Shown piece after piece: positions 2,989 to 46,861 of a DNA stretch of 64,000 nt; the stretch's first letter is position 1; every line of letters starts with the position of its first letter. Origin of the DNA: Mobula hypostoma. Taxonomy: Eukaryota. Below the pieces are notes generated by a model, which saw nothing but the letters and a program-made list of their open reading frames with translations, made no database searches and was not told where the DNA came from. Both the position numbers and the translations under genes were made by a program. The stretch is from positions 50,346,001 to 50,410,000 of the forward strand of contig NC_086097.1 in the NCBI RefSeq assembly GCF_963921235.1. Reading direction: 5' to 3'.

Positions 2989-3390
2989 GCCTTTCAGACA
3001 GGATTCTGCATGTCCCAAATAAGGCAGCTTTGAAACAATTTGTCTGAGCAAAACATAGCTAGTCTAGATCTCACCCTTCTGTGGTAATCATATCTATTAA
3101 TACTGGTTTACTCAGTCCCCACTGTTGTATGTTTGCCAGAGTAGGCATTTGTTTCTTTTCACAGGGCAGTTTAGCAATGCATGATCTCGATCTATGTCCA
3201 GTGTCTAACTCATTGTTCACTCTTTAGTCTGTGACTGTGCTGTACAGTCATTTCATTGCAAGTGTGGGCTTGTTTGTGGATATTTGTACTGGGCCCGAGG
3301 AAATGGATTTCGTGAACTCACTATTGCATTCAGAACTGGATGTTGCTCCTTAACTAAATGTGTAAAATGTTGGTGAGTTAAACTTCATCC

Positions 3391-6300
3391 TTTATTTTTC
3401 AATAAACATACAACTACTATTTAATGATTTACCGGAACTTTATTTTCAACATGGAAAGAAAATGTAAATGTTTAAATATAACCCACTTGTTACAAACATA
3501 CTGCAATAGTAGTAAATAGAGACATCACTTTGAAATTTCTAAATCATTCAAAATTACTTATTTTAAAAATAGAAATAGAATACTAAGTATACTATGCATG
3601 TTTGAGAAAATAAATTCTATTATACCATGGTTAATCTCAGTGCTGAAATGAGTATTAACCAACTAAAATAATACCAACTGAAATTCAAGTTGCATTAGTT
3701 ATAGAATTGGCCTTGTCCTTTTAATTTCAAGATTTGTTATGAAATATAGTATCTTTAATAGTGAAAATATAAATAGCAAATTTGTCTCCTTCATAGATAA
3801 CTTGACAGATGCTGTTAATTTAATCAAACCATTACTGATAATATTTCACCAAAACAATGGTTTGAACTAATCTGGAACTTTCTGTTGAACATGCACAAAA
3901 TCAGAGGGAGATAGTACCATACAAGGTCAGTTGTGGAGGTTGTTTCAAGTACCTCAGGAAACTGAAAGTTGTCACTTCCTGAGGATGTATTGTCATAACT
4001 CCTACAGACTTCCTTTCAATAGAAAATTCATTAATGGATTATAACTGTCACAGGTTAGATAGCTGAGCATTCATCAGTTTCCTTTTTCCAAAAGTTTAAT
4101 TTGTTAAAACTTTACTTCTGGGAAAAAAATTATTTAAATGCTGCTGTGCAGTAAAACATTGATCAAAATCTAAGTTAGTAAGGGACCAAAAAGTGACTGT
4201 TCCCTAAACTCACTAAAAGTAGATCTTAATGGTTTCACAATCTAAAACAAACTAATATTTTTCACAGGTCTTAAATTTAAATATTTGGGATTAAGTGTTG
4301 AAACCAACTATAGAATGGGTAACTAATGAAAATAGAATAATTCCAAAAATCAAATACAATGCAACCTAACATACACTTAGTATCAAAGTGCATTACTAAA
4401 ATATACATGTCTAGAAACTTGAAACCAAATGAACCATATAGGAACCACATTTCGTTTAACATTATACAAGAAATTAAACAATTTATTGCACACCCAAATA
4501 TTCTAGAAGTGGAGATTTCATAATGCACTTGGCATGAATAGGCCACTGAAGTTTTGGCCTACATATTAATAAGGGATTTGTGCACAATTTCACAACTTTC
4601 ACAAACTCAAGTTCTAAATTTCTAGTCCAGCCCCATAAAGATCAATTGTAACAAAGTGGAACTGGGGATAGGAAGGGGGCGGGGGGGGGGGAGCAAAAAA
4701 AGTCTTTCTCGATTAAATTACAAACTTTGTAAATTACATTAAGGAACTGTATATATACACTGTACAAGATCACATGTCCTTAATACCGAAAGGAACAAAT
4801 CTGCATCTAAATGAAATGAAAAATTGAGACAGGTACTTAACAGCCAAATGTACAATTTAATGGACTAGCAATTTTCTGTAGGAAAATTAACAAAAAAAAC
4901 AGGCTACACTAAATAGTTTTTAGGAGAAGATTGAAATAAAATGTTTAACAATTCCAATTGCAGGTGATCATCTAAACCTCATGCAGGAAGGGTTGACTTA
5001 CAACCTAGTCTGACATGCCAGTGCAAGATCACAATTGCCTTCCACTAAATGTTCTTGCACAAATGACATTTCTGATTATCTAAACATCAAACTGCTTATC
5101 AGCCACTTATCACATAACATAATGCAACTCAAATGTTATCAGCAATATGCCACTCATTTCATATAGAACTTTAGAAAGCACCTGTGGCATTGAAACATAG
5201 CACTTCCCATCTTGCCTAAATTCACTATTGCTCTCATTCCATTAACAGTGCAAGAGAAGGTTATCCAGAATGCATGAGATAGGACATACTAACAAAATTG
5301 CAAAATTATAGTACTGTATTGAAAGAATAATAGAATCACATGTCAAATACTCTCCTTGAGAAAGAAGTCCCCAATTTCTCAGCAACTAAGAAACTTGAAT
5401 TTATAGAGTGCCTTTCTCACAAACTTGAAGCATATATTTTAAAATGTAGGGTAGTTTTGCATTAGTAATCGTACAAAAGAGACATAGCACAGCTGATTTA
5501 TGCTGAGCAAGAGATGAGCAAGTTTTTAAAAAATAATTTGGGTCTAAAGATATGGCAGTCAGAATACTAGCATAACTGTCCTGTCAGCCTTTGGAGAGGA
5601 TCAAGTTGACTGAAAAGGGCAGATAAGGTGAAGAACAGACAAAGTGAAAAACAACGGTATTTTAGTATTCAATGGAAAACACTACTTTCATTGAATTAGT
5701 TTGAGAAATGCACGCACAGTCATATACAAATTATGTTTTGCATAATTCAGTAGTTTTGTGCTTTGCACTGTACCTCAGTCCATGTGGCAAGAATAAACCA
5801 ATTCCAATCCATTTGTTTATGTTGCTTAACAAAAGATAACAATAAGACTGACATTTTGTCCAAATGCTACATGCTGTTCATAGCCTAGATTTACATCTTA
5901 CCCGAAAAACAGAAACTGCCAATGAAGCTGTCTCTCCATTAGAACAGCAAACAGTAAACCTAGATTGTGCTCAACTCTGTAGAAGTTTGGATTTTTCCAC
6001 AATATATTAAATTATAAGGCCACTACTTCCAACTTATACATATTATTACTAAGCAATGCAATGTAAATGTGGTAACATTTTCTGGAAATGTTTAGTTGCT
6101 TAAGGGTATGAATAACTTGATACATTTCAAACTTTATTTTACATTAACTATCATCTTCTTCCCATTTGGAGCATGGCAGTGAGTCCAAGTCATAAATATG
6201 TTCATATCAATGGTACAAATCATTAGAAGGCATTAGTTTAAAAGCAGATACAAGATTAGCAAATATTCAACATGATCATTTATGTAGTTGCATTGCTCTG

Positions 6301-7126: not shown

Positions 7127-7963
7127 TTAAGATCCTACAAGAATCTCCATGATGTGGTCCAGATCACTTAAGTCTACTCGACAAATCTGAATGGTATTCA
7201 CTGATGTTGAATTGCATAACTGAAAGGGTTTTGGAACATCATCCACAATAGCTGGTGGCGATCTAACGGACGTTGATGGAAGCAAACACAAATCAGAGTC
7301 ATACATGGATGTGTCAATGTCTTCAAATATGTCATCAAAAGCAAGGTCTGTTAGATAACTCGTTGAATTGCTGATTTCAAAAGAGCCAAATACAGTTTCC
7401 ACAGGCCGAGTTTCTTGAGTACGGTCTTCAAAAGGCAAATGTACATATGCATCACTCTCATCTTCAGGTATTGGACAAGGAGACGGACTGATGTCTTCCA
7501 TGAAATCCAAGTCTTTGAGGATTGATGAAATGGCAGATGACATGTCATTATCTGAAACCAACACTAAAGAATTCTCTAACTGGCTCTCTGAAAAATCTGA
7601 AGAACCATTCAAATCTGGAGAGGTATTGAGTACAGATGATCCAGTTAATTCAATACCTCCTTGACATGGTATGTTTGTGTCTGGAATTGGATTTGGTCCA
7701 TTGCAACTGCTAGAGCTTTCATGACTACCCTCTTGTCTCATTTCCTCCTGAATTTGTCGTACAGTATTTGCTATGAGAACAGAACGATGCAAATTTGGTT
7801 CCACCAGCATTCTACAGCTCTGCAATTTGATGAGGCACATGTTAAGTACTAGCTGTCTCTGCAAGGTATACGGCAGCCCTGGATTAGAATCAAAGGCACC
7901 AGGAAGACCAGCCATGTTCTCTTCGTAATCACTAAGTTTGCGCTTCAGTCCTTTAGCCAACAT
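7127..7963 (-). CDS. SERTA domain-containing protein, CDCA4/SERTAD2 (TRIP-Br) family; SERTAD2-like paralogue, 278 aa
   Basis: N-terminal MLAKGLKRK motif, SERTA domain (YTLQRQLVLNMCLIKL...EPNLHRSVLIANTVRQIQEEM), acidic DDIFEDIDTSMYD motif and C-terminal DLSDLDHIMEILVGS. Single coding exon, as in this family. Orthology (CDCA4, SERTAD2 or a third paralogue) was not resolved by eye. Confidence 0.95.
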   Translation of the reverse strand: MLAKGLKRKLSDYEENMAGLPGAFDSNPGLPYTLQRQLVLNMCLIKLQSCRMLVEPNLHRSVLIANTVRQIQEEMRQEGSHESSSSCNGPNPIPDTNIPCQGGIELTGSSVLNTSPDLNGSSDFSESQLENSLVLVSDNDMSSAISSILKDLDFMEDISPSPCPIPEDESDAYVHLPFEDRTQETRPVETVFGSFEISNSTSYLTDLAFDDIFEDIDTSMYDSDLCLLPSTSVRSPPAIVDDVPKPFQLCNSTSVNTIQICRVDLSDLDHIMEILVGS

Positions 7964-7967
7964 GAAT

Positions 7968-8000
7968 CTGGAATAAAGAGGAAAAAGGAAAAATTGAATA
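7968..8000 (-). other. 3' splice acceptor of the coding exon
   Basis: Minus strand reads ...TTTTTCCTTTTTCCTCTTTATTCCAG|ATTCATG: strong polypyrimidine tract, CAG at 7970-7968, exon starting 4 nt before the ATG. Confidence 0.9.
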
Positions 8001-8089
8001 TTTTAATAATTTTTGGCTATTTTACAGCTCTGAAAGAAAACCATTACCAATATTGAACACATTTGATGTTTAAAAACTGAAACAATGAA

Positions 8090-12892: not shown

Positions 12893-14306
12893 TCCTGTAT
12901 TCACTGACGACACTTAAATGAAACAGTTTGTATCAGCAAGCAGCACAACTCTAACATTCAGACTTGAGCTGGTGCACAATTTAGATACGTTATTTGCTGT
13001 AGAAATGTCAGACACTGACCATTTCCAGTAACAGACTACCATTATTCCTTGACATCAATCGCATAACTAACACTGGATGCTCCATCATTAACTTCCGAGC
13101 GTCAGTGCTGACAAGAAACTTGTCCAGAGTCAACCATGTTAAGGGCTCAATTCTTCCCCCGCAACAAATGAGTTACATTTGTACTCACAAATCTACATTC
13201 TGATATGTAAAGGCAAATTTTCAACTAGCTAGGATCAGTGCAACTCCAACATCAATCAAGAACTTCAACATTCTCCGTGCCAAATATGTCTACTAAACAG
13301 AATCCTCATCTGTCAATTCAACAAATAGCACACTTCTACCATATTACAGGGCAATTAGTGATCTCCAAAATAAATCGATCATACCAACAATTTCCAGATC
13401 CAATGAAATAATGAAAAAAAAATCTCAAACTCTAAATAAAATGTACTCCTTTACCACCTACAAGAAAAAATGTGTAAATGTTGTGCAATCAAACCAATAA
13501 ATAGTTGTCCTGGATTTAAAGATGGCTTGGCAAAATAAGACAGGGCAGCGGTGGAATGGGATTATTTTGACTGGAGGACTGTAACATCTGGTGTTCTGCA
13601 TGGATAGTGCCTGGACTTCTGTCAATTTTTGTCATCTGCAAGCTTACCAATCAGTTGTGGTCCAAACATTAGAGTTATGGATAGTGAGGAAGTCTCTCAA
13701 AGATACAATATTACACAGATGAGTGGAAAAATGGGCAGAAAAATGGCAGATGGAGTTGGAGGGTTATAGACCAACCATATGCCGGCAGATGGGGTTAATT
13801 TAAATTGGCATCAGAGTCCACACAGACATTACCGGCCAAAGTCCTGTTCCTGTACCGTCCTATGATCTATTTTCAAATGCTTCTCTTTGAGATAATACAC
13901 TGATGATTTTAGCAATATTCCTATACTAATAACCACCCTGCAAGTTGATAAAATTGACTTCAGACCCAATAACATAAATAGTACATGCAACTCTTCCCAA
14001 TGATGCTGCATCAATCTATCTGGTCTATTTGATTGTGGACTCTGATTAATGGTTCACGTCGGGCCCAGTTAAGCGTCTGCCCTAATTAGTCAAAATTTCA
14101 TGGAAGCAGTTAAAATGCAGTTTGTCTTTTTTAAAAAAATACCTCTTTAACTGAGTAACAAATTATGTATTTAAGATGAAATTCAGAACAAATCTGAACA
14201 CCATCAATACTATTACAGTACTAGAAAACACCATTAATTCCCAATAGTTATCAACAGAAGATTTGCACTGCATGCTCTTTCAGCTGTAAATGAACAAAAT
14301 CACACC

Positions 14307-14487
14307 TGGACACGAGGAAGTCTGCAGATGCTGGAATTTCAAGCAACACACATAAAAATTGCTGGTGAACACAGCTGGCCAGGCAGCATCTATAGGAAGA
14401 GGTACAGTCGACTAAGTTAGTCCTGACGAAGGGTCTGGGCCCGAAACGTCGACTGTACCTCTTCCTAGAGATGCTGCCTGGCCTTCT
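14307..14487 (+). mobile_element. Short palindromic Penelope-derived retroposon with hammerhead motif; 11-bp TSD
   Basis: Inverted arms GGCCAGGCAGCATCTATAGGAAGAGGTACAGTCGAC / GTCGACTGTACCTCTTCCTAGAGATGCTGCCTGGCC. TSD AAAATCACACC at 14296-14306 and 14488-14498. Confidence 0.8.
14419..14454 (+). ncRNA. Minimal type I hammerhead ribozyme motif
   Basis: AGUC-CUGACGA-A-GGGUCUGGGCCC-GAAA-CGUC-GACU. Both core boxes are intact, stem I is AGUC/GACU, stem II is GGGU/GCCC, stem III is the loopless palindrome ACGU. Predicted cleavage after GUC at 14450. Confidence 0.7.
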
Positions 14488-17400
14488 AAAATCACACCCA
14501 GTGTAGATAATGGACTGCCTTCATACAATTTTCAACATTGCATCCTCCAAATCTTAATTTTCATTGTAACATTTAAGATGATTATCAATACCTTCAAATT
14601 CTTTGTAGTTCCTAACTTGTTGAAGTAGTGAAATCATTTCATTTTCACTCACAGCTGTTTCTGGCATCTCCAAGCCTGAACACTTGAACCTGCACTGAGC
14701 AAAACTTTCTCCTTATTTCTCATCAACTATCAGTGACAAAAATCACTGCTTTTTGCACACTAATACATGCAACTTGCTATTTAAAAACTGTTCACTCTAA
14801 GCACAGTGTAGTGTCTAACGGCCACACAAGTGCACGCTAGTTAGAAACTTCTGCAAGTCTCCTGTCCCAACTTAGTGGCATAGTGTCTCAAATAAATGAA
14901 GGAAATCCCGTCCATTTTCTCAATTAGTTTTTGTCCCATTTTTGTTGTCAGTATGAGACTGCCCAATTAACTGATGGCCTAATTAACCGGAATCCACCGT
15001 ATACATTTCACACTTCAGTGTTAAATCTATATTGATTAGTAGAGTCTCTGAATTTAAAATTTTTTAACTTGCTGGGAAAATGAGTAAGTGAAGTAGAAAT
15101 TTAAAATTTCATTCTCTTTATTGCAAGTATTGCAACTTGGACAAAGCACCTGAACAAGCGTGGCTGCTGGACTTTCTGAACACAACCTCAGAATATTTTC
15201 ACAACATTTCTGTGCATCTTTTAAGTTAATTCCAATTCAAAATTAGTAACTTCTAACTTCATAGGTACTAATTACACAAATTATTTGTTCTGTATATAAA
15301 AATCGAGGCAGACACTTGTTAGACAACTTGATATTATTTCATCAGTATCAGAGGTTACTTTTTTGCCTTTCTAAATTTACAAATGTCATTTTATTCAAGT
15401 CAATACAGCTTCTTCCTCAAAAGCTCCCGCTTCTTGTGTTTATCACGTCGTTTTGTAATATCCAAGCAGGACAATTGCTACTCAGATTACTGTATGCCAT
15501 CACATCCACAGAGAATACAGTAAACAAAGAGGTCTGCCTGACTGAGCCCTTTTTAAAAGGTAAACCAGAATTTGCATTAATCTTGCTTTCACTGCTCTCT
15601 CCTTTTGGGTCGCTTCACTCTGTTTTTGCACAAAGTAGCAATACAACAAAAGGAAGTTTTTATTTTGCCATTAAAAATGTTACACAATAAAAGCTTACCT
15701 TGTTTCCAAAGTACCACAATTTCTATTTTCAAATCTGTGGAGTTAGGAGGACAGTACATTCTGAGCATTTCAGATGTAAATGGATTAGTCCTTAGTTGGT
15801 TTTTAAGATCAGTTTTTGTCTGCGAGCTAGGATTCTCACTTGCACAAACTGCCATGCAGCTGTCCTGGTTTTTTCAGACAGCTGACAAACAGCAACTGCA
15901 CAAGCACAATGACGCAGAACACTAAGCTGCCGTGGAAAGGAGTGGAGCTTGAAAAAAGTGGGTGGAGCTTTGTGGCTTGCAGTAGTGTCCATCCCCAGCT
16001 TGGCGAGCAGTCAAAGAACTGCCCAACAAGCTCACGGGGCCCCAACTGTGCTATTCCAGAAATGCTGACTGTGCCTCTACCATGTCCGCTTACGGCAGTT
16101 TGTTGAAGCATTATACAAGGCAACCCAATTGAATACTGTAAAAATATCACTAAAATAAAAGCACGAGTCAAAGCTACAGGGATTTAACAACTTATTTTGC
16201 AAGTGCTTCCCATTAAGGATGTTTCCATATTGGTTGAAAGCTTGAAGGCCTTTAAATATAGAGGGGGAGAAATTGGATAGTGCATTAAAAATTCTGCAGC
16301 ATTCATACTATACAATTAATCCATGCTTGTTTGATTCAATACACAAGAATCTGTGCCCCAACCTCATAGCCATGATAGCAAAATTCAGTCAACGTCTGTC
16401 ACACAGCTTATTGCATTAGCACTTATTCACAGACAGCAAATCTAGAAGTAACCCCAAGTTGCAGCTAGATCATGCAGAATGAGGCCATTCTGTCCATCGA
16501 AAGAGTGGGTGTGCATTGAAAATAGTTTCAAGTGTGTTCAGCTTCAGGAAGACTGCTGCAGGCCATAATCGCAGTACAACAAAAGTGTAGGTACACAATT
16601 TTTCAGCTGAAGCTTTAGCACCTCGATAGATGAGGAAGGCAGATTGCTCTTTCAGTTAGGACCAAGAGTGAAGCTCCCAGAATAGGGATATACTAGAAAA
16701 ATGTTTTAAATGACCTCACACATAGTTTAGAACAGTAAAGGCATCAATAAATCCCAGTTCTTTACAATCATAACTAATCTCAAAGCTGTTCCAATCAGTG
16801 GCCATGGAGCAGTGCATGAGATTAGAGATAGTTTGTAATTAAGCCCTCTCACCCAACAATCTCCACCATTAAATCATGCCTTCATTCATACTCCATCATA
16901 CCCTTAGATACATATATTCCACCCCCCCATCTCACACAACATTCAGAAAGGACAAAGATATAATTCAGAATATTGTAATGTACAATACTCACAAATTCAT
17001 AGCACTTCCTGAATGATCAGGTAGTATTCACTGACAGCATCGGTTAATGGCTAGTAGTCAATTCCACATCCATCAGTTCTAACTGATGGAGAAATGGTCA
17101 TCACTGAAGCAGCCACCCTGAAGTTAGTGATAGCCCAAACATCACAGAGGATGATTAAAGGGCTATTTCCAATCCATCTTTTTGATCCATTTCTTTTCTG
17201 TTTTATGACATTCAAATGGCATGAGAACACATCCTTTAGTGTCTCGTCTCATCTCATCGAGACCCTCCAGCACTGCCGTTCATATTTTACATAGTCCAGA
17301 ACTCCCAGCTCCCCATTTGCTGGTTACTGAGTCACAAGATAGTCAAACAACGAATTTAATCTCCAAAAATCTTATTGCTTTAAGAGGTGGGATCTGCAGT

Positions 17401-20247
17401 GAGGAACTGCTACAGGTAGACTGCAGCCAGAATAGGAAACCATAATCCAGTTCATCACTGAGAAGACGGAATGGAGAAGTCTAACAGCTTTCTTACACTG
17501 AGTTTGACAAACCCATCCTTTCCACCAGAAATGCTAACTTGCTATCCTCCATGAAATGGCACCAGTTGGCTGATGTTCCAAATCCCACTACAGCATGCTC
17601 AGTGCCTCGGTAATGAACACTCAGGCGGCCAAGATTATAGATCTGAATGCTAGTCTTCAAGTCAGTTTTCATGATGTTGCTCAGCAGAAGCTGAAACTCC
17701 GATGAAATCTATCTGAATTTTGACTGTCTAGGCCCAGAGTTATTATCTGCTCTTCACGTCAATCTGCCATAACCTCCAGTGCATGGCGAGCACTATCTCA
17801 GTGCAATAGGGCAAACAAAGACATCGTGGAAGGCGGCACCAAGGGCATACAGAAGAGTGACTGGAATAAAACCAGCAGATCCTGAAAAACTAAAACCAAA
17901 GAGAATCCTGGAAGCACTCAGAAGGTCAAGGAAGGTAAACAGAACCTATACCAGTTTTTCTGCAAACCCCATTCCTTCCACCTTCTGAAACATAAGCTTA
18001 CTACTTTTCTCACTTCGCCCATTCTGATGAAGGGCCCTAGACCTGAACTCCAGATATATAACCAAAGCCATTTGCTACACTGACTACTACTGTCCATCCA
18101 AGAGGAAGACAATGAATATCTCTCCCCCAGAGTAAAGTGCTGGCAATCAAACAAGAGGGCATACCCAACACCTCCTACAGCTGCCTGAAAGGAAACAAAG
18201 GTCAAGTAGTGGAGGCCCACTTTGACCTTTATTGCCACAACCTGAACAATCCTGGCATAACTATAGCTAAAGCTGTCGGCATTGTTGGAAAGGACTTGCA
18301 TCACCAGCCGCCTGCTCTCCATGCCAGGCCGTGGCTTGCAATGGAATTTTGTACTATATAATTTGCTGAGGAACACAAGTTTCCCTATAAATATGCACTC
18401 AAATCCACAAAGAGATCATCTGCAGAGCTGAAAAAGAAAATATCTCAACCCAATAAATCTCACCATATGCACTGCTTGACATATCAAAAAGCAAGTGAAT
18501 CACAAAGAATTAAGTAAAACACTGATTTTACACCATCACTTTCAGGGATCTTGCCTCTCATTCAACAGTCACTTATTGATCTATTGGGATTTTACATACT
18601 ACCTCTTCAAATCCAATAAATGAGCTGAACCAATTTGTACAGTCAGAAACAAGAGTAATTCAATATCAACCACATCTATCAATCGAAACACTAACTGATA
18701 CATGTATGCTTACCTATAGAAAACAGAGCTCAGAAAATCGACCAAGCCAACATCAGGTGTTGCCGTTTGCATGTGCTGTGCACGTTACATGCATTTTGAA
18801 TTATATTTTATTAACTTATTTGTGATAAATATTTATTTTATGTGCTGTGTGCGATACATGTATTGTGGGTGCACCGTGGTCCGGAGGAATATTGTTTCAT
18901 TTAGTCGTACATGAACAGTCAGATGACAATAAACTTAACTTATAAAACGTAAGTAATATAAAATAGTAACAAAAGGGTATTAACAGTTTTATTAATTATT
19001 TAGGAACACTCACTTGAAACTAAACTTCTAAATGCATTTAGAAAGATTTGCGGATACCTCAAAGCTAATCAAATATTTTCTGCTGCCTCATAGAAGATTT
19101 TTGAACTGATAATGGAGTTTTACATTTCTACAAATATATCTTTGAAGAAATTATGATAAAGTTCACACAACTAAAGGCATTTTACTACAGTTATCCTGGA
19201 CTAAAGGGACTTCTAGCCATACTTGCCTGGAATAGTAATGTAGCTTTGCAGGTCACCTGAGGTAAATTACTACTCCAGACAGAAAATGACAAAATATTCT
19301 TTTGTCATCCTATTGATTTCACCTTTTGTCCCGTTTGGCAAATATACATCTGAAAACTACCTAACCAATTTGAAATATATTCTCTCAATGCTCCAACCAT
19401 TTCTAAAATTAGCAATGTTTGCAATTACCAAAACATACATACTTAGAAATACAATTGTAATAGCATGGCTATAATTTCCAACACAAAATATTAACCAGGG
19501 CTGCCATAGCAGATAATGAAACTTTTGATCATGCAGAAAGCATACAGAGCGCACAGCTGACATCTATCCACATATGACACCCAACTTGTGGCTAGTTTGT
19601 GAAATCAAATACAGTGGATTCTGATTAATTAGGCTATCAGGGCAGCCACTTATTTGGGACAATACTTAAGGAACAAAAACTAATGGAGAAAATAGTTGGG
19701 ATTTGCTTAATTTGTTTGGGACACTATGCCACTTAATTGGGACAGAAGACTATTGCCAAACATTTTCTAACCAGCATCAGTTGCGTGCCCTCACTGTGCT
19801 TAAAGTGAACAGGTTCAGTAGTGGGTGCTCTTGTTCAATGAGCAGTGAATTTTGTCACTGATAGTTGGAGAGAAACATCAGCAAGACAATACAGAACTAC
19901 TTCCCCTCACTTCTGCTCCAACTATTCAGGCTCAGAGATGCCAAACATGGCTGTCAGTGAAAAATGAAACAATTTTGCTACTTCAACAAGTTAGGTACTA
20001 TGAAGAATAAAGGTTTCAACAATCATCTTGAATATTAAAATGACATGAAGATTTGAAGGATGCAATCATTGAAAGCATTGTACTAAGGCAGTCCATTATC
20101 TCCACTAGACGTCTGCACTGATTTTGTTCCTTTCAAAGAAGGGAACACGGTAGCACACACTGGATGAATTCCTCCGTCAATAACTAATACAGTTTTATAG
20201 TACTGCAACAGCATTAGTAGTGTTCTAATTTGTATTGGATTTCATTT

Positions 20248-20441
20248 GGGGTGTATGGGGTGTCAGGGAGCGGTAGCACCTCTGGTGGGGTAACATGTCG
20301 CGTCCTTTTCAAGGTGGTTAGTCCACCTTTGGTCCCCACCTGGCACTCAGCTCTCACCTGTGGCTCCCCGTAGCTGTTTGCATGTGACAGCGGACACACC
20401 CCAGGCAACGGCTTCGACAAGCCAGCTAAACCAGGTGAGGG
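20248..20441 (+). ncRNA. HDV-like (nested double pseudoknot) self-cleaving ribozyme; this copy carries two core substitutions
   Basis: P1 GGGGUGU(20248-54)/ACACCCC(20396-402); P2 CUCUCACCUG(20351-60)/CAGGUGAGGG(20432-41); P3 GGC(20362-64)/GAC(20393-95, mismatch); L3 starts UCC; AG-GCAA where GG-GCAA is expected; P4 GGCUU/AAGCC; J4/2 GCUAAA with candidate catalytic C20426. Confidence 0.75.
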
Positions 20442-20809
20442 TAGCCAACGGGTCTCAAACCCTTAGTGAGATAGGGAGTTGTCTATCCCAGCATGTGAAG
20501 ACAGACTCCAGCAGATTGAACGGACAAGACCAATGGAAGGTCCAGCAGTCAAGAAGGTGGTCTCTGCAAGCGTTGTGGAACATGTCGAGCAGGACAAGAC
20601 CCAGAGGTCGTCCTGGTCATCCACTGTGCCTAGTCCCATCTCCAGCCGTCTTGACTTTGTCTTGCCACTGGATCCAGATGGGAATTGGGAATAGAGAATG
20701 AGGCTGACGCTGCGCAACTCTCCCTCACTTAAATCCAAATCATACGCTAGTCTCGACACCATCATAATGGTGTCGAGATCCTCATCGACGTCGACGACGG
20801 ACAAACACT
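20248..20809 (+). mobile_element. Short non-coding RTE-derived retroposon (5' UTR joined to 3' end)
   Basis: GC-rich ~560-bp insert flanked by ATTTCATTT (20239-20247 and 20810-20818). RTE-type 3' end GAGGCTGACGCTGCGCAACTCTCCCTCACTTAAATCCAA with a 12-bp hairpin. No RT ORF. Confidence 0.8.
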
Positions 20810-22489
20810 ATTTCATTTAAATGCATAATTTGTTACTCAGTTAAACAGAAGTTTGTCTTTTTGTACCTTTTTGACCATTTCCATGAAACTTTGGTTAATT
20901 AGGGCAGCTGCTTAATTGGGCCAAATTGTATTGGTGTCAATGTGTCCCAATTAACCGGAATCCACCTGATGGATTTTTAATTTTTTTTTCCAGGAAGCCA
21001 GTTACTAATAGTTTTCTGAACAAAGTTCATGTGGGGGTGGAGTTCTAAAGCTACGATTTAAAATGCGTCACTGATTATGGGCACAGAATTGGAGCAAAGC
21101 TCAAATTTATTGGGGCTGAAGATCTTCCTTCAGAATTTTGCCAAGGAATTAGCACATGGTAGACTTTGCTTGCTGTCTAGATATGAATGTTTTAATACTT
21201 CAACCCACTGGGTCAGTGGTGGGTGTACTAGTAGAGGAATTGGGGCGGGGGGCAGGGAGGCAGAGACAGATCATCAGATGAAAGTAAATGGGGTACTACA
21301 TGAGGTATCATAGGTTCATCCTTAATGTGTGTGTATACCATGCCATACATTTAGATGATGAGGGCTTATGGTGTTACCTCTGTTTTTATCCCCCCAACAT
21401 CTAGTACCTGTATCAGAGAGTCACAGCAGGTTGCTTGTCCAATGAGATTCAGTAACCAAGTAACATCGGTAACCAACTTGCAATTATGAAGTTCCATACT
21501 CATCCAGCAAAGGCTGGCTTGATCAAAGAGCTCTTAGAGACCCTGGAGAAACTACATGACAGACATTGACTGAAGGCTCAGAGCAAGAATGGTAGGGCAC
21601 AGAAATGCACTTTTTGGCCTGCCATGCCCATGTAATCCTCTCTATCTGCACTGATCTCATTTGCCAGCAATAGGGCAGTATTCTTCTCTCCATCGAAGTG
21701 AAGTTCAGGTGGAGGTAGTGTACCAACCAGTAGAGCACATGAGAACAGTAAGGCCTATTCTCCAAACATTTAACTTAAATTCCCAGCTGAAATACTGCTA
21801 CATGTGACAACAAACAATTCATCCCTTTCCCTCATTATCTGTAGAGTGTACAATTCAGAAATCATAGCCTGTAAAGAAAGATCGTTTAGCCAGTCTCTCC
21901 CTACAGCACGTAAAGCTACTTTCTGAAGTACAGAAGTATGCAAAAACTTTATCCAGCCCCATCTGAACATGGAAGCGAGAATTGGCCCTCCTCTCTTGCT
22001 AGCAATGGTGTGGTGCTCACAGATGACAAATCTATTATTTTAGCCTCCATAAGGAAATGTATCACTGGGAGGCTGTACAGAGAAGATTCACTAGGTCAAT
22101 TCCCAGAAAGAATTAATTGTCATGTTAAGAAAGATTAATATGTTTGGTCATATACTCATTGCAAAATTCAAAACTAATCTTATTCAAAGATACAGGATTC
22201 TAAGGGAATTGGCAGGATGAACGATGACTTAATGGTTTCCCCCTAGTACAATTATCTAGATTTAGAGGACAAGCTTCAAAATAAGGGGTCACCTTACAGT
22301 AGAGATGTGGAGAAATCTCATCTGAGGTTTGTGGGAATTTCCTGTCCAAAGGGCTCTGGAGATAGGATCATTAAATATATTCAAGAGGTGGGCAGGCAAA
22401 GAGTGGATAAAGTAATGTTGAGGCCCAGACTGAAACATCCATAATCTTATCAAGAAAAAGAGCATACTTGGATAACTTGGACCCACTTC

Positions 22490-25260: not shown

Positions 25261-25361
25261 AACATAGAAACATAGAAACATAGAAAATAGGTGCAGGAGT
25301 AGGCCATTCGGCCCTTCGAGCCTGCACCGCCATTTATTATGATCATGGCTGATCATCCAAC

Positions 25362-27455
25362 TCAGAACCCAGCCTTCCCTCCATACCCCCTGACCCCTGT
25401 AGCCACAAGGGCCATATCTAACTTCCTTTTAAACATAGCTAATGAACTGGCCTCAACAGTTTGCTGTGGCAGAGAATTCCACAGATTCACCACTCTCTGT
25501 GTGAAGAAGTTTTTCCTAACCTCGGTCCTAAAAGGCTTCCCCTCTATCCTCAAACTGTGACCCCTCGTTCTAGACCTCCCCAACATCGGGAACAATCTTC
25601 CCGCATCTAGCCTGTCCAATCCCTTTAGGATCTTATACGTTTCAATCAGATCCCCCCTCAATCTTCTAAATTCCAATGAGTACAAGCCCAGTTCATCCAG
25701 TCTTTCTTCATATGAAAGACCTGCCATCCCAGGAATCAATCTGGTGAACCTTCTTTGTACTCCCTCTATGGCAAAGATGTCTTTCCTCAGATTAGGGGAC
25801 CAAAACTGCACACAATACTCCAGGTGTGGTCTCACCAAGGCCTTGTACAACTGCAGTAGTACCTCCCTGCTCCTGTACTCGAATCCTCTCGCTATAAATG
25901 CCAGCATACCGTTCGCCTTTTTCACCGCCTGCTGTACCTGCATGCCCACTTTCAATGACTGGTGTATAATGACACCCAGGTCTCGTTGCACCTCCCCTTT
26001 TCCTAATCGGCCACCATTCAGATAATAATCTGTTTTCCTATTTTTGCCACCAAAGCGGATAACTTCACATTTATCCACATTAAATTGCATCTGCCATGAG
26101 TTTGCCCACTCACCCAACCTATCCAAGTCACCCTGCATCCTCTTAGCATCCTCCTCACTGCTAACACTGCCACCCAGCTTTGTGTCATCCGCAAACTTGG
26201 AGATGCTGCATTTAATTCCCTCATCCAAGTCATTAATATATATTGTAAACAACTGGGGTCCCAGCACTGAGCCTTGCGGTACCCCACTAGTCACCGCCTG
26301 CCATTCTGAATAGGTCCCATTTATTCCCACTCTTTGCTTCCTGTCTGCTAACCAATTCTCCACCCACACCAATACCTTACCCCCAATACCGTGTGCTTTA
26401 AGTTTGCACACTAATCTCCTGTGTGGGACCTTGTCAAAAGCCTTTTGAAAATCCAAATATACCACATCCACTGGTTCTCCCCTATCCACTCTACTAGTTA
26501 CATCCTCAAAAAATTCTATGAGATTCGTCAGACATGATTTTCCTTTCACAAATCCATGCTGACTTTGTCCGATCATTTCACCGCTTTCCAAATGTGCTGT
26601 TATCACATCCTTGATAACTGACTCTAGCAGTTTCCCCACCACTGACGTTAGGCTAACCGGCCTATAATTCCCCGGTTTCTCTCTCCCTCCTTTTTTAAAA
26701 AGTGGGGTTACATTAGCCACCCTCCAATCCTCAGGAACTAGTCCAGAATCTAACGAGTTTTGAAAAATTATCACTAATGCATCCACTATTTCTTGGGCCA
26801 CTTCCTTAAGCACTCTGGGATGCAGACCATCTGGCCCTGGGGATTTATCTGCCTTCAATCCCTTCAATTTACCTAACACCACTTCCCTACTAACATGTAT
26901 TTCGCTCAGTTCCTCCATCTCACTGGACCCTCTGTCCCTTACTATTTCTGGAAGATTATTTATGTCCTCCTTAGTGAAGACAGAACCAAAGTAATTATTC
27001 AATTGGTCTGCCATGTCCTTGCTCCCCATAATCAATTCACCTGTTTCTGTTTGCAGGGGACCTACATTTGTCTTTATCAGTCTTTTCCTTTTTACATATC
27101 TATAAAAGCTTTTACAGTCCGTTTTTATGTTCTCTGCCAGTTTTCTCTCATAATCTTTTTTCCCCTTCCTAATTAAGCCCTTTGTCCTCCTCTGCTGAAC
27201 TCTGAATTTCTCCCAGTCCTCAGGTGAGCCACTTTCTCTGGCTAATTTGTATGCTACTTCTTTGGAATTGATACTATCCCTAATTTCTCTTGTCAGCCAC
27301 GGGTGCACTACCTTCCTTGATTTATTCTTTTGCCAAACTGGGATGAACAATTGTTGTAGTTCATCCATGCAACCTTTAAATGCCTGCCATTGCATATCCA
27401 CCGTCAATCCTTGAAGTGTCATTTGCCAGTCTATCTTAGCTAATTCACGTCTCAT
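25362..27455 (-). CDS. CR1 ORF2 reverse transcriptase part (697 aa)
   Basis: KSPGPDG, NYRPVSLTS, QHGF, YLDFQKAFDKV, GVPQGSVLGP and FADD motifs. Confidence 0.9.
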   Translation of the reverse strand: MRRELAKIDWQMTLQGLTVDMQWQAFKGCMDELQQLFIPVWQKNKSRKVVHPWLTREIRDSINSKEVAYKLARESGSPEDWEKFRVQQRRTKGLIRKGKKDYERKLAENIKTDCKSFYRYVKRKRLIKTNVGPLQTETGELIMGSKDMADQLNNYFGSVFTKEDINNLPEIVRDRGSSEMEELSEIHVSREVVLGKLKGLKADKSPGPDGLHPRVLKEVAQEIVDALVIIFQNSLDSGLVPEDWRVANVTPLFKKGGREKPGNYRPVSLTSVVGKLLESVIKDVITAHLESGEMIGQSQHGFVKGKSCLTNLIEFFEDVTSRVDRGEPVDVVYLDFQKAFDKVPHRRLVCKLKAHGIGGKVLVWVENWLADRKQRVGINGTYSEWQAVTSGVPQGSVLGPQLFTIYINDLDEGIKCSISKFADDTKLGGSVSSEEDAKRMQGDLDRLGEWANSWQMQFNVDKCEVIRFGGKNRKTDYYLNGGRLGKGEVQRDLGVIIHQSLKVGMQVQQAVKKANGMLAFIARGFEYRSREVLLQLYKALVRPHLEYCVQFWSPNLRKDIFAIEGVQRRFTRLIPGMAGLSYEERLDELGLYSLEFRRLRGDLIETYKILKGLDRLDAGRLFPMLGRSRTRGHSLRIEGKPFRTEVRKNFFTQRVVNLWNSLPQQTVEASSLAMFKRKLDMALVATGVRGYGGKAGF

Positions 27456-27465
27456 ACCTTCAAAG

Positions 27466-28362
27466 TTACCCCTCTTTTAAGTTCAGAACCTTTGTTTCTG
27501 AATTAACTACGTCACTCTCCATGTTAATGAAGAATTCCACCATATTATGGTCACTCTTACCCAAGGGGCCTCTCACGACAAGATCGCTAATTAACCCTTC
27601 CTCATTGCTCAAAACCCAGTCCAGAATAGCCTGCTCTCTAGTCGGTTCCTCGACATGTTGGTTCAAAAAACCATCCCGCATACATTCCAAGAAATCCTCT
27701 TCCTCAGCACCTTTACCAATTTGGTTCACCCAGTCTACATGTAGATTGAAGTCACCCATTATAACTGCTGTTCCTTTATTGCACACATTTCTAATTTCCT
27801 GTTTAATACCATCTCCGACCTCACTACTACTGTTAGGTGGCCTGTACACAACTCCCACCAGCGTCTTCTGCCCCTTAGTGTTACGCAGCTCTACCCATAT
27901 CGATTCCACATCTTCCCGGCTTATGTCCTTCCTTTCTATTGCGTTAATCTCTTTTTTAACCAGCAACGCCACCCCACCTCCCCTTCCTTCATGTCTATCC
28001 CTCCTGAATATTGAATATCCCTGAACGGTGAGCTCCCATCCCTGGTCACCCTGGAGCCATGTCTCTGTGATCCCAACTATATCATAATCATTAATAACAA
28101 TCTGCATTTTCAATTCATCCACCTTATTACGAATGCTCCTTGCATTGACACATAAAGCCTTCAGGCGCTCTTTTACAACTCTCTTAGCCCTTTTTAATGC
28201 TTGCCCTGGATTTGTCGGCCTGCCACTTTTACTTTTCCCCTTTGTACTTTTTGCTTCTACGCTCACTTTACACCCCTCTGTCTCTCTGCACTGGTTCCCA
28301 TCCCTCTGTTGTGAACTAACCTCCTCACACCTAGCCGCTTTAATTTGATTCCCACCCCCCAA
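27466..28362 (-). CDS. CR1 ORF2 apurinic-like endonuclease part (frameshifted from the RT part)
   Basis: NARS, ITETW, GGGVAL, VYRPP, GDFN, LDWVL and SDH motifs. One extra T in CCTCTTTTAA (~27475-78) relative to copy 2. Confidence 0.88.
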   Translation of the reverse strand: MGGGNQIKAARCEEVSSQQRDGNQCRETEGCKVSVEAKSTKGKSKSGRPTNPGQALKRAKRVVKERLKALCVNARSIRNKVDELKMQIVINDYDIVGITETWLQGDQGWELTVQGYSIFRRDRHEGRGGGVALLVKKEINAIERKDISREDVESIWVELRNTKGQKTLVGVVYRPPNSSSEVGDGIKQEIRNVCNKGTAVIMGDFNLHVDWVNQIGKGAEEEDFLECMRDGFLNQHVEEPTREQAILDWVLSNEEGLISDLVVRGPLGKSDHNMVEFFINMESDVVNSETKVLNLKEG

Positions 28363-36024: not shown

Positions 36025-37200
36025 TTCTAGCCTGGTGGGTCACACTCAGCAGGAGAAATTTTTACCTCTTTGCATGACTCAAGGGTACGATCACCCATGT
36101 GTAGGGAGGACTGGGCTTTGCTGGTAATGAGTAGGGCCCTTGTGCTGGAGCCTTCATGAACTGCCAGACTTGCAGCATTTCCAAAACCAGACTTTGACGT
36201 GGCTGCAATGAGCTTCACCTATCTACCTGTTAAAAGTGTGTTTGCCAAGAAGGGTCTTTCTGGAGGTGCACAACAACAACCCTATGGGCTGTTTCCAGGG
36301 ACTCGTACTGAGGAAAACACCCAGGCCTTGCAGAAGGATTATCAAGTACAAGATGCCCTCAGGTCTGATCAGAACTTACTGGTCTCCTATTGCAAGAGCT
36401 ATGCAAAGAATCTAAGGAAAAGATACCCACAGGGGTGCCCGAGAGGGGTGGGGGAGGATGAGCACCCCAGTCGGATGGACACAACGACATCAGACCCAGG
36501 CAATGAACAAACAACAATGAGGAAGCAGTGTGCATGTGGCAAAATCTGCAAGAACGATCGCGGCTTGAAGATCCACCAAGCGAGGATGGGAGCAGGAGCA
36601 GCACAACGCGCAGGTGTTCAACCTGGTGAGATGAAGGAGGGGCCAGGCCCGGAGCCACCCCATAGTGCCCGGAACCTCCAAGTGTTGCAAACTAATCCTC
36701 GAACATGAAGTCTAACAGGAGGCGGATCAAATGGCCTGCAGCTAACATGACTTCACTGTGGAAGCAGTTTGATGATGATGTTAACCAAATTCTGGAGGCA
36801 ACGGCGAAGGAATTTGATAGGAAGCTGCACGCCATAACACAGCAACTGTCAGCAGGCTGGATGGAGAGCGAGGTGTCTCCCAGTGGAGGTTGGTTGTAGG
36901 GGATTTGTAGCCCATTCTTTAGTTAGAGCCTTCAGCATTTTGGGCATCGAGGGAGAGAGGAAGAGGAGAGCCATCCGCAGTACCACTGATGCGGCAGAGA
37001 GGGCCTCAAGATGGCTGTGGCTCAAAAGAGGGGAGCCATGGAGTCATAAGTAGCTAGCCATCTGGACACAAGCTGGGGTCTGATCAGCCCCGGCTGGGTC
37101 ACCTGGAGGAGGTTGTATGATGTTGAAAGACCCGAAACACCCGATGATTCCAGGAACATCACTGAAGATGTGTCCAGAAGCATCAATAGATGCATGTATA
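36025..37200 (+). mobile_element. Internally deleted HERO/R2-superfamily (REL-endonuclease) non-LTR element
   Basis: N-terminal zinc finger CACGKICKNDRGLKIH and RRIKWP, joined near 36840 to the REL C-terminus GWRARCLPVEVGCRGF...AERASRWLWLKR (stop 37051-53). RT absent. Structured 3' UTR. The 5' boundary is approximate. Confidence 0.82.
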
Positions 37201-41193: not shown

Positions 41194-41384
41194 TGTTGTG
41201 TTCTTTAGACATACCGTGGGTTACTAAGAACAAACCATATTCTGGAAGGATTAAAACCAGAACTTTTATTTACAACAGCAAACAGCTACCATGTTTAACA
41301 TACAGCCATGCTTTCTAGATCATTCTGTCATTTCTGCGCATACTCCGAACTCTGTCCAATCACCTTTTTACACGTGACATCACA
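41194..41384 (-). repeat. 3' LTR
   Basis: Direct repeat of 43066-43258. Confidence 0.9.
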
Positions 41385-41442: not shown

Positions 41443-42284
41443 TTAACATGTCTCTATCAGTCTCTCTGGGGGCTGATATACATGAGTATATCTTCTAAGT
41501 GGTTCACACAGTTCTTGTGTTTCATTGTCATTTTCATGTGTTGTCTGGTCTGCATCAGTTAACTGACACTCTGAAGTTGGCTCTTTCTTGAGGTCTTTGA
41601 GAAGAAATTGCAATTCATTCATTAACTGTGTAATCCCTTTATTATGCTGAGACTTCATCATTTCAATAAAACTTCTCAATTCCTTCACTTGTTCTTTCAC
41701 TTCTTCAATTGGATCCTGATTCTTGTCACTCTTTGGCTTCAGATCCGTATTGTACTGTACCGGCAAGTTTGGTCTCTGTATGACTTCATACTCTTTCATC
41801 AAGTCACTGTATTCTGACTCTGTGTCACTGTCCAGGACTAAGAATCTTTTCACCAAATTCAGTCTCCCACAGGCAGATAAACCCAATATTGACTGTACAT
41901 ATTTTGGCACTACCACAAATGAAAGTATATGCTCAATATTTTTGTGTGATACTTTTGCCACACATGTTCCTTTAACTGGAAGGTCTGCACCTGAATACCC
42001 AGTCACTTTTATATTTGTCTGATGTAACTTTGGTCTTGGCTTTAATGCATTAAGCTCAGATTCTGCAAGAACATTTACCTGTGCTCCAGAATATTGTTTT
42101 GGTTCACTTGCAATGGAATAGTCCAGTCATCCTTACTTTGTTTGTTTTCACAAAGCACATGTATATAAAACTCCTCACATTCATTTTCAAGCACTGCATT
42201 TACATGTTTTATTTCCTTTCTACTTCTGCAACAGCGTAAAAAATGATTACTCTTACCACAGTTTTTGCACATTTTCTGATACAC
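41443..42284 (-). pseudogene. Gag zinc knuckle, aspartic protease remnant, foreign coiled-coil segment and pol C-terminal tail
   Basis: CKNCGKSNHFLRCC knuckle; GAQVNVL and ILGLSACGRLNL protease remnants; LRRYT...PPERL tail; RT, RNase H and integrase core missing. Confidence 0.8.
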
Positions 42285-42321
42285 TGGACACTTTTTATGT
42301 TGGTGCTCCCGCCCACAGAGA

Positions 42322-42972
42322 TCACAAAGTTTTTTTTCCTGCAGATAACGTCTTGTTCTCTGTCAGTTTCGTTGCCGTTTTATTACTTTTTCTAATATGT
42401 TCACGCACAGCGTGTACGTTGCAGTTCTCAATAGAAAGCTCTTTAGCCTGTGACGTCACGGTCTCAGAAGCTTTGCAGAGTGCAACAGCTTTTTCCAAAT
42501 TCAAATCTTGTTCTACCAGTCTTTCTCTCAGACCATTATCCAGAATGCTGCAATTAATTCTGTCTTTAATGAAAGAGTCTGTAAACTCGCATCTTTTACT
42601 GTGGTTTCTCGACTCCGTAATAAATTGATCAATCATTTGACCAGGTCTCTGCCGACATTTGAAAAAAATGTACCGTTCATATGTCACATTGCACTTCTGT
42701 ATACAAAATGCTTCAAATTTGTCGATTATCTCTGTTAGATTCAAATTATCTCCATTTTCAAAAGTAAAATGGTTATATACCCCAACTGCGTCATCCCCTA
42801 TTATGTGGAGTAGGATCGCTGCTTTCGTCTTTTCCATTTTATTTTCTGCTCCTATCGTCGATACATAAATTTCAAAACGCTGCTTAAATCTTTTCCAGTT
42901 TTCAGCTACGTTTCCAGTCAGCTGAAGCATTGATGGGGGTTGCAAAACTTCCATTTTTAAAGTTGTTAGCAA
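42322..42972 (-). CDS. Gypsy gag (capsid) ORF, 216 aa
   Basis: GNVAENWKRFKQRFEIY...LLHIIG...NVTYERYIFFKCRQRPGQ.IDQF...IKDRI...L.LEKA. Confidence 0.85.
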   Translation of the reverse strand: MLTTLKMEVLQPPSMLQLTGNVAENWKRFKQRFEIYVSTIGAENKMEKTKAAILLHIIGDDAVGVYNHFTFENGDNLNLTEIIDKFEAFCIQKCNVTYERYIFFKCRQRPGQMIDQFITESRNHSKRCEFTDSFIKDRINCSILDNGLRERLVEQDLNLEKAVALCKASETVTSQAKELSIENCNVHAVREHIRKSNKTATKLTENKTLSAGKKTL

Positions 42973-43065
42973 ACAACGAAAAAGTTTGTGCTTATTTTCT
43001 CTATTGTCTTCGCTTCTCCCGTGTTAGCGAGACAAATTATTCTTCCAGATCGACTTCTGACACCA

Positions 43066-43258
43066 TGTTGTGTCCTTTCGTGGGTTACCAAGAACAAACC
43101 ATATTCTGGAAGAATTAAAACTAGAACTTTTACTTACAACATCAAACAGCAACCACATTTAACATACAGCCATGCTTTCTAAATCATTCTGTCATTTCTG
43201 CGCATGCTCCGAACTCTGTCCAATCATGTTCTCACACGTGACACGTGATATCAGCACA
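43066..43258 (-). repeat. 5' LTR
   Basis: Direct repeat of 41194-41384, abutting the PBS. Confidence 0.9.
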
Positions 43259-46056: not shown

Positions 46057-46861
46057 CAGTGCATTCTGGTTAATTGGGACACATCGGGACCAGAACATTT
46101 TGGCCCAATTAAGTGGCTGCCTCATTTGTCAAAGTTTCATGGAAAATAAAAAAGATGTTAAAAAGGCAAACTATGGTTTAACTGAGGAACAACTTATGAA
46201 ATGAAATACAGAACAATTCAGTACACTATCAATACTACCATAGTACTATAAAACTGTAATAGTTATTGATGGACAAATTACACTGTCATGCTCTTTTGAT
46301 TGCAAATAAACAAAATCAGCAGATAACTAATGTAGATAATGGACTGACTTCATACAATGCTTTTGATGATTGCATCCTCCAAAGCTTCATTTACATTGTA
46401 ACATTCAAGATTATTGTTGATATCTTTGAACTCTTTGTAGTTTCTAACTTAGTGAAGTAGTGAAAATCATTTCATTTTGCACTCACGGCCATTTCTGGCA
46501 TCTCCAAGCCTGAATGCTTGAAACTGCAGTGAGGAAAACAGTTCTGAATTGTCTTACTACTTATTTCTCACCAACTATCAGTGACAAAAACCACTGCTTT
46601 TTGAACACAAACACATGCAACTGATGCTATTTAAAAACTGATTGCTCTAAACACAGCATAGAGCCTAACCACCACACAAGTGCGTACAACTGACAGTAAT
46701 TAGAAACCGTTCAGCAACAGTCTCCAGCCCCAATCAGCATAGCAGCCCAAATGAATGAAGGGAATCCCAACCATTTTCTTGATTTAGTTTTCATTCTTTA
46801 AGCACTGTTCCAAATAAACGGCTGCCCGGTTAACCAAACGCCTAAAAACCAGAACCCACCG
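46057..46861. mobile_element. Non-autonomous Tigger/pogo-like DNA transposon (copy 3)
   Basis: TA|CAGTGCATTCTGGTT ... AACCAGAACCCACCG|TA. Confidence 0.8.

Follow-up and report, generated by a model that had tools for sequence, protein, structure and literature searches.

A predicted HDV-like ribozyme with a hairpin in loop L3 at the head of a short RTE-derived retroposon in Mobula hypostoma

RTE and other non-LTR retrotransposons are known to carry HDV-like ribozymes at their 5′ ends (Ruminski et al. 2011 and Webb et al. 2009, as reported in PMC6765202 and PMC5786205), and the general mechanism, with ribozyme-headed RTEs and their short derivatives, is already established. The element described here resembles these RTE ribozymes, as those sources present them, in fold, in its place at the first base, in RTE context, and in the proposed release from host transcripts. 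It differs in carrying a 21-nt hairpin in L3 and in being a non-coding derivative with at least 1,564 copies in a large vertebrate genome; the L3 hairpin is a variant feature of the known system. Short non-autonomous elements that combine an HDV-like ribozyme with a LINE 3′ end are also represented by R2 SIDEs (PMC3414825) and by NARTc and SIDER of trypanosomatids (PMC4035085), and several of their ribozymes have been shown to cleave (same sources). They belong, however, to the R2 and Ingi clades rather than to RTE, R2 SIDEs are site-specific, and the available text of these reports mentions no L3 hairpin. RTESINE1/2, WALLSI3, and MAR4_MD (PMC5786205) likewise consist of an RTE 5′ UTR and 3′ tip; a retained 5′ ribozyme is only suggested for bipartite RTEs in the accessible part of that paper, with no fold given, whereas a fold is given here.

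Regarding architecture, the closest likeness is to drz-Agam-2-1 of Anopheles gambiae (PMC4908430), which also has a large structured J1/2 closed by P1.2, short linkers, and a long P2 (12 bp there, 10 bp here). The likeness is one of described architecture, and the accessible text of that report mentions no L3 addition. Perere-3 twister variants of Schistosoma mansoni (PMC8501958) are a further case of a self-cleaving RNA that sets a non-LTR 5′ end, though of another ribozyme class. In the literature covered, neither an L3 hairpin nor this family is reported; Ruminski et al. 2011 and Webb et al. 2009 with their supplements, the likeliest precedents, lie outside that coverage. Judged by its sequence, the element would work like the known ribozyme-headed LINE derivatives and agrees with the testable features of the HDV class apart from L3 length, though less clearly in J4/2.

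The window, i.e., the whole 64,000-nt stretch analysed (GCF_963921235.1, NC_086097.1, positions 50,346,001 to 50,410,000, forward strand), contains on its plus strand a bipartite non-coding RTE-type retroposon (20248–20809, family A) of ~560 nt, ~94% identical to the family consensus, with the ribozyme part in its first 194 bases. It is enclosed by a 9-bp target-site duplication (TSD), ATTTCATTT, at 20239–20247 and again at 20810–20818. The 5′ copy abuts G20248, which agrees with the statement in the preliminary description that G1 is the first base after the TSD. Both flanks are joined without the element in another copy of an older host repeat (46059–46838), and joints across the empty site are also found in contigs of other organisms; the element is therefore an insertion. 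The host repeat itself occupies 19600–20247 and 20810–20965, and a further copy lies at 14062–15012. As the T-rich base preceding G1 is part of the TSD, it was left out of the ribozyme evidence.

According to a DNA search of the 3.48-Gb genome, in which 40 of 4,910 candidates were scored, the other 39 copies are full length and 93% identical. Exact patterns matched the core 1,458 times (control 0) and a 5′ motif 1,564 times. TSD-like repeats flank 36 of 46 copies, compared with 14 of 300 mismatched controls; they are 7–13 bp long, and 22 of the 36 end at G1 or one base into it. Family members are scattered over the genome, have TSDs and a short tandem tail, encode no protein, and lack a small-RNA head: the longest ATG-started frame has 110 codons, ARAGORN reports no tRNA, and there is neither an A box nor a tRNA head. 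The promoter-less character supposed in the preliminary description was checked as far as the tRNA head goes, and in L1Tc a single stretch acts as promoter and ribozyme alike (PMC4035085). The window copy is among the most decayed of the sampled family A copies, with 31 differences from the consensus in the first 545 nt, 17 of them at CpG sites.

The HDV-like fold at the head of the element, proposed earlier from the letters alone, is confirmed, and P1, P2, P3, L3, P1.1, J1.1/4, P4, and J4/2 all occupy the order and places given for them. The 5′ strand of P1 (20248–20254) pairs with 20396–20402 in 7 of 7 positions, and cleavage is predicted directly 5′ of G20248 (G1). The pairing of G1 with a pyrimidine (C20402) is what the HDV descriptor of PMC6326823 requires. 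J1/2 (20255–20350, 96 nt) forms one long irregular hairpin closed by the 10-bp stem P1.2 (20258–20267 with 20339–20348). The P2 5′ strand (20351–20360) makes 10 pairs with 20432–20441, 2 of them G-U, so the perfect 7-bp P1 and 10-bp P2 of the preliminary description both stand. P3 begins at 20362–20364 and leads into the conserved start of L3 (the two together 20362–20370), with U20365 equivalent to U20, C20366–C20367 forming P1.1, and G20370 equivalent to G25. L3 extends over 28 nt (20365–20392) and begins with UCC; its 21-nt addition (20371–20391) contains a 6-bp hairpin (20373–20378 with 20386–20391), in this copy with five Watson-Crick pairs and one G-U. The segment 20393–20408 holds P3′ (20393–20395), P1′ (20396–20402), P1.1′ (20403–20404), and J1.1/4, GCAA (20405–20408). 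It is followed by the P4 hairpin (20409–20424) and by 20425–20441, comprising J4/2 with C20426, the C75 equivalent, and the P2 3′ strand. All of these features lie on the plus strand.

The length of J1/2, earlier put at ~95 nt and called unusual, is real but not unusual: the structured J1/2 domain of drz-Agam-2-1 speeds that ribozyme (PMC4908430), and loops of R2 ribozymes reach 498 nt (PMC3774820). Rfam gave no match over 20248–20809 at E-values up to 10, and its 4 weak hits (E 0.74–8.8) all lie elsewhere in the window; with a J1/2 of 96 nt and an L3 of 28 nt, a missing match is expected. Folding energy is ordinary, with z equal to −0.55 for the window copy and −0.48 for a near-consensus copy.

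As for the integrity of this copy, one pair each is broken in P3 (A20394), P1.1 (A20403), and at the base of P4 (C20409-A20424), and G20271C is found in J1/2. The first two breaks, GCC to GAC in P3′ and GG to AG in P1.1, had led to the earlier view that the copy is impaired, which holds; the third had been missed. Because of this third break the copy fails the strict HDV descriptor even with two mismatches permitted, and as a ribozyme it is probably slow or dead. The family consensus, built from 29 other copies, restores all three pairs, with C at 20394 in 29/29, G at 20403 in 26/29, and G at 20424 in 23/29. The predicted GCC at 20393–20395 and GG at 20403–20404 are thereby borne out, and the same letters prevail in four sequencing runs from other organisms. 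In the consensus the five helices P1, P2, P3, P1.1, and P4 follow the nested double-pseudoknot order. With the lengths of J1/2 and L3 left free, the consensus passes the strict descriptor, and 0 of 2,000 dinucleotide shuffles do so. The whole 64-kb window contains 0 strict hits and, outside the element, 2 relaxed ones (33098 and 6613, minus strand), which are probably chance. The complete core (P1, P3, P1.1, U20, G25, and C75) is kept in only 19 of the 46 copies with a 5′ end.

Since variation within family A reflects decay after insertion, the fold was tested on two sister families, and pairs were counted per family by script because the MAFFT alignment of family C was wrong at the L3 gap. 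Family B, with 34 exact genome matches and 16 copies fetched, is older than A and keeps the L3 hairpin. It is identical to A at 171 of 199 ribozyme positions and differs at 59 of 207 body positions (29%). Family C came from a search for a short L3, in which 57 of 63 matches belong to it by eye, and 14 copies were fetched. From its P1′, AUACCCC, a start of GGGGUAU was predicted ahead of retrieving the 5′ ends. In accordance with this, P1 pair 6 is G-C in 39/46 A copies and A-U in 13/14 C copies. At P2 pair 8, families A and B have C-G where 14/14 C copies have G-C; at P4 pair 2, A has G-C where B and C have C-G; and two inner pairs of J1/2 switch from G-C to A-U, its topology being the same in B and C. 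The sixth P4 pair is U-U in family C; with that pair excluded, equal numbers of changes placed at random would keep all pairs with a chance of roughly 2e-5.

The remaining core is conserved rather than covarying. U20 and G25 are kept in 44/46 A, 16/16 B, and 14/14 C copies, the second P1.1 pair is C-G in 40/46, 16/16, and 14/14, and the C75 equivalent is C in 45/46, 13/16, and 14/14. Thus, the covariation check proposed earlier succeeded for P1, P2, P4, and J1/2, with one two-sided change each in P1 and P2, whereas P3, P1.1, and U20/G25 are invariant among the three families and speak for conservation only. P1 pair 6 is left as an uncompensated A-C in 6/46 A and 6/16 B copies, and in ~12 of the first 100 copies listed. 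The A-C in B is also the reason why the majority consensus of family B passes the descriptor only via a second GGGGUGU. This G-to-A change (equivalents of window position 20253) is scattered over several sub-lineages, and G-to-A at positions 2–3 is frequent too; the change at position 6 may be a subfamily trait or may date from insertion.

J4/2 is CUAA in all three families, compared with CRRA in the published descriptor (PMC6326823), and its C is kept in 72/76 copies. In HDV the base right after the catalytic C is flipped out. In a near-consensus copy, the structure of lowest computed energy pairs the 5′ strand of P3 with J4/2 and hides the catalytic C. This nested structure raises the possibility that the conserved parts serve as hairpins, with P2 extended over J4/2 plus P4, in a protein-binding or translation element, and that the pseudoknot is coincidental; the nested fold is open to family C too. 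It leaves unexplained, however, why P1 matches the exact first seven bases and changes on both sides in C, and why U20, CC, G25, GG, and C75 are kept. We consider this explanation extremely unlikely.

In family C, L3 has 7 nt, and in A and B 28 nt, which departs from the usual 7–8 nt. The 21-nt addition sits 3′ of G25, leaving U20, the P1.1 cytidines, and G25 at HDV spacing. Judging from crystal structures, positions after G25 would face solvent. The stem-loop reported earlier in L3 is present in the window copy and family-wide; by eye, the addition has its full length in 99 of the 100 family A matches listed. The consensus sequences of A and B show 0 differences in its 21 positions, compared with 59/207 in the body and 19/96 in J1/2, which suggests selection on the insert; a recent exchange of the core between the two families would leave the same pattern. 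Since the loops of HDV and CPEB3 also have 7–8 nt, it is simpler to suppose that the A/B ancestor gained the hairpin, and the feature appears to be lineage-specific. A search for other families with an L3 hairpin and a different P1′ returned 7 matches, of which 6 are decayed members of A or B and 1 is due to chance.

A loop of this size could also mean that the ribozyme was inherited but is disabled or slowed by the hairpin, and that an internal promoter starting at a fixed base produces the G1 end. Such a promoter has a precedent in Pr77 of L1Tc, which is promoter and ribozyme at once (PMC4035085); a fixed transcription start would likewise produce a fixed 5′ end, the natural HDV-type L3 loops in the literature covered have 7–8 nt, and the P1 A-C mismatch is tolerated in a sizeable share of copies. 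The comparison of A and B, however, goes against it. Over the first ~195 nt the two differ at 28 positions, distributed over J1/2 (19), J1.1/4 and P4 (6), unpaired L3 (2), and P1 position 6 (1), with none in P3′, P1′, P1.1′, J4/2, P2′, or the L3 insert. A core that stays unchanged while its unpaired neighbours change suggests that the fold was under selection once the hairpin had arisen. Moreover, G25, which is required for activity (PMC13635239), stays in register, and P4 shows a two-sided change between A and B, which both bear the hairpin. A disabled ribozyme is accordingly rated as improbable.

Family-wide 5′ ends were counted by eye in the first 100 of the 1,564 matches to a pattern anchored on positions 10–29, a copy being taken to begin at G1 with at most one mismatch in positions 1–9. 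By this count 78 copies begin at G1, 12 at positions 2–4, 7 at 5–8, and 3 at 9–10. Among 19 copies picked by their 3′ end (from 40 hits, 20 fetched, with L080 left out), 11 begin at G1, 5 at positions 2–7, 0 at position 10, and 3 are truncated in the body. The 78 of 100 unselected copies agree with the expected start of genomic copies at GGGGTGT, and G1 is the family 5′ end.

The second GGGGUGU at 20257–20263 exists as described, and it had been offered as an alternative P1 and cut site. Two competing P1 registers would have some basis: both pass the descriptor, tandem P1 copies are both usable in R2 (PMC3774820), and the second run forms the better pairing of the two wherever position 6 is A. 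Starts at positions 9–10, however, amount to 3/100 unselected copies, no more than at neighbouring positions, and none of the 19 copies picked by their 3′ end begins at the second run. This run mostly forms the 5′ arm of P1.2, and using it as P1 would open P1.2, at a cost of ~12 kcal/mol for the consensus and 9 for the window copy. Family C, finally, has no such repeat and yet the same J1/2 stem. A second cut site is therefore very unlikely, and that part of the earlier proposal is not supported.

The reading we consider highly probable is that an HDV-type ribozyme with an L3 hairpin heads a deleted RTE, cuts at G1, and is copied in trans by an RTE protein. A copy would be transcribed inside a longer RNA, and its first 194 nt would fold into the HDV-type double pseudoknot, with P1 and P2 drawn close by the J1/2 hairpin. 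By known HDV chemistry, the RNA would then be cut just 5′ of G1 with the use of C20426. An RTE protein acting in trans would bind the 3′ tip and copy the RNA to a new site by target-primed reverse transcription. The expected outcome, 7–13-bp TSDs and copies starting at G1, is observed on both counts. The 21-nt hairpin, being 3′ of G25 and outside the U20-G25 pair and P1.1, would be tolerated or selected in a presumably active ribozyme. Since then the window copy has lost single pairs in P3, P1.1, and P4.

According to alignments in the supplement of PMC5786205, compared by eye, 20615–20760 is colinear with RTE-3_AMi 147–292 and with the RTE part of WALLSI1/1A/2, and 20765–20809 with RTE-3_AMi 3854–3893. 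The element downstream of the ribozyme thus divides into the remaining RTE 5′ UTR (20442–20763, plus strand) and an RTE 3′ tip with a short AC-rich tail (20764–20809, plus strand), the latter also present in a tRNA-headed SINE from the same genome. These ends, and the RTE-type LINE that sister family C caps, bear out the earlier assignment to an RTE-derived retroposon. In its sequence, the element has the makeup of an internally deleted RTE LINE, with the 5′ UTR joined to the last ~45 nt and no protein. Just 3′ of P2, 20445–20475 forms a hairpin whose loop is, by eye, complementary to the five bases after the stem in A and B, which makes a further pseudoknot possible.

In family C, 3 of 14 copies continue into an endonuclease frame. 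L114, capped by the family C ribozyme, is a 3.3-kb LINE with endonuclease and RVT_1 in one broken reading frame; the 462-nt short C element consists of the first 394 and last 59 nt of L114 at 96% identity, and the L114 ribozyme core is 78% identical to family A (E 3e-6). Its endonuclease part is 28–33% like that of the DUF6451-bearing L061, and its nearest Atlas cluster carries RVT_1 at 100% and DUF6451 at 12%. By domain content and similarity, L114 would be classed as RTE-type. As for a partner LINE of family A, the element has no DNA in common with 30 DUF6451 loci and three longer stretches, and none was found among the 100 of 111 and 100 of 218 matches listed. Patterns excluding the short form gave, among the matches listed, only loop variants, truncations, and a fusion with the tRNA-headed SINE, and a metagenome scan with the conserved RTE 5′ UTR motif gave 0 matches. 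L061 (G000:C36:131596500-131605500, minus strand), an intact RTE whose open frame has 1,018 codons and whose tail is GAA, was rejected as partner for its different tail and 5′ UTR. That 5′ UTR is not HDV-fold-like and has a short motif in common with the J1/2 loop of family A.

The fusion form (L116–L120 and L124; e.g., G000:C1:217634260, plus strand) consists of the family A 5′ part up to the exact junction, followed by the whole tRNA-headed SINE, which carries the same RTE 3′ tip as family A. It accounts for ~17 of the 100 matches listed (by eye) and was confirmed in 6 of 10 fetched stretches. One fusion match lies 0.5 kb downstream of a listed family A 5′ end, so at least that copy has the ribozyme before the SINE.

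The junction between the 5′ and 3′ parts is spanned by an 11-bp hairpin (20752–20777, plus strand) with a loop whose length varies among copies. In L114 the corresponding breakpoints are complementary (381–404 with 3270–3290), near the start and stop of the reading frame and 2.9 kb apart. With a 24-nt window before the 5′ breakpoint, which takes in the outer helix, the pairing reaches −19.7 kcal/mol, rank 1 of 73 sites (next −16.3); with 20-nt windows it is not significant (56 of 576 windows as good), and the result hangs on this choice. In L061 the test is marginal, the best site lying in the 5′ UTR at −17.8 compared with −17.5 internally. The RTE-3_AMi segments 147–292 and 3854–3893 also have complementary letters at their breakpoint ends, in a different sequence, as far as the PMC5786205 alignments go. 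These two or three cases, one of them marginal, suggest that RTE RNAs may pair the start and end of the reading frame and that deletions follow this stem. The main text of PMC5786205 mentions no stem or hairpin and gives the reason for the RTE clade bias among bipartite elements as not known.

The wider window holds several further features. The element lies on the strand opposite to a single-exon SERTA-domain ORF 12 kb away (7127–8002, minus strand), which we take to be CDCA4-like; the antisense position given earlier agrees with this as regards strand. A splice acceptor just before its ATG implies an upstream exon, and no clear CpG island marks a first exon in the window. Two young LINE copies, presumably CR1-like, lie on the minus strand at 25280–28060 and 58633–61418; they are 98% identical, and one has a 902-codon open frame. 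At 36160–36708 (plus strand) a frame without a Pfam hit contains a CxC-x2-C...H zinc-finger-like stretch and, in our view, resembles the start of an R2-type element. Broken gag/protease-like frames at 41443–43023 (minus strand) are enclosed by 165-bp direct repeats (41215–41379 and 43079–43243), and the whole is probably a short LTR element.

The fullest version of the proposal, in which a natural HDV-like ribozyme is active and has an extra helix under selection in its catalytic L3 loop, where peripheral domains are not known to occur, and in which RTE start/end pairing marks where short elements are cut out, is advanced tentatively, as somewhat short of probable. If true, it would widen the HDV fold by an L3 able to carry a whole helix, a third site of module attachment after J1/2 and P4, and descriptor or Rfam searches with a short L3 would miss such ribozymes. 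The genome offers a natural pair with and without the L3 hairpin and many intact copies. For RTEs in general, the findings support the suggestion, made in PMC5786205 as far as its available text goes, that bipartite elements survive by keeping the 5′ ribozyme. The junction hairpin supplies a testable reason for the clade bias left open there, and start/end pairing, if true, would help explain why RTEs so frequently give rise to bipartite derivatives.
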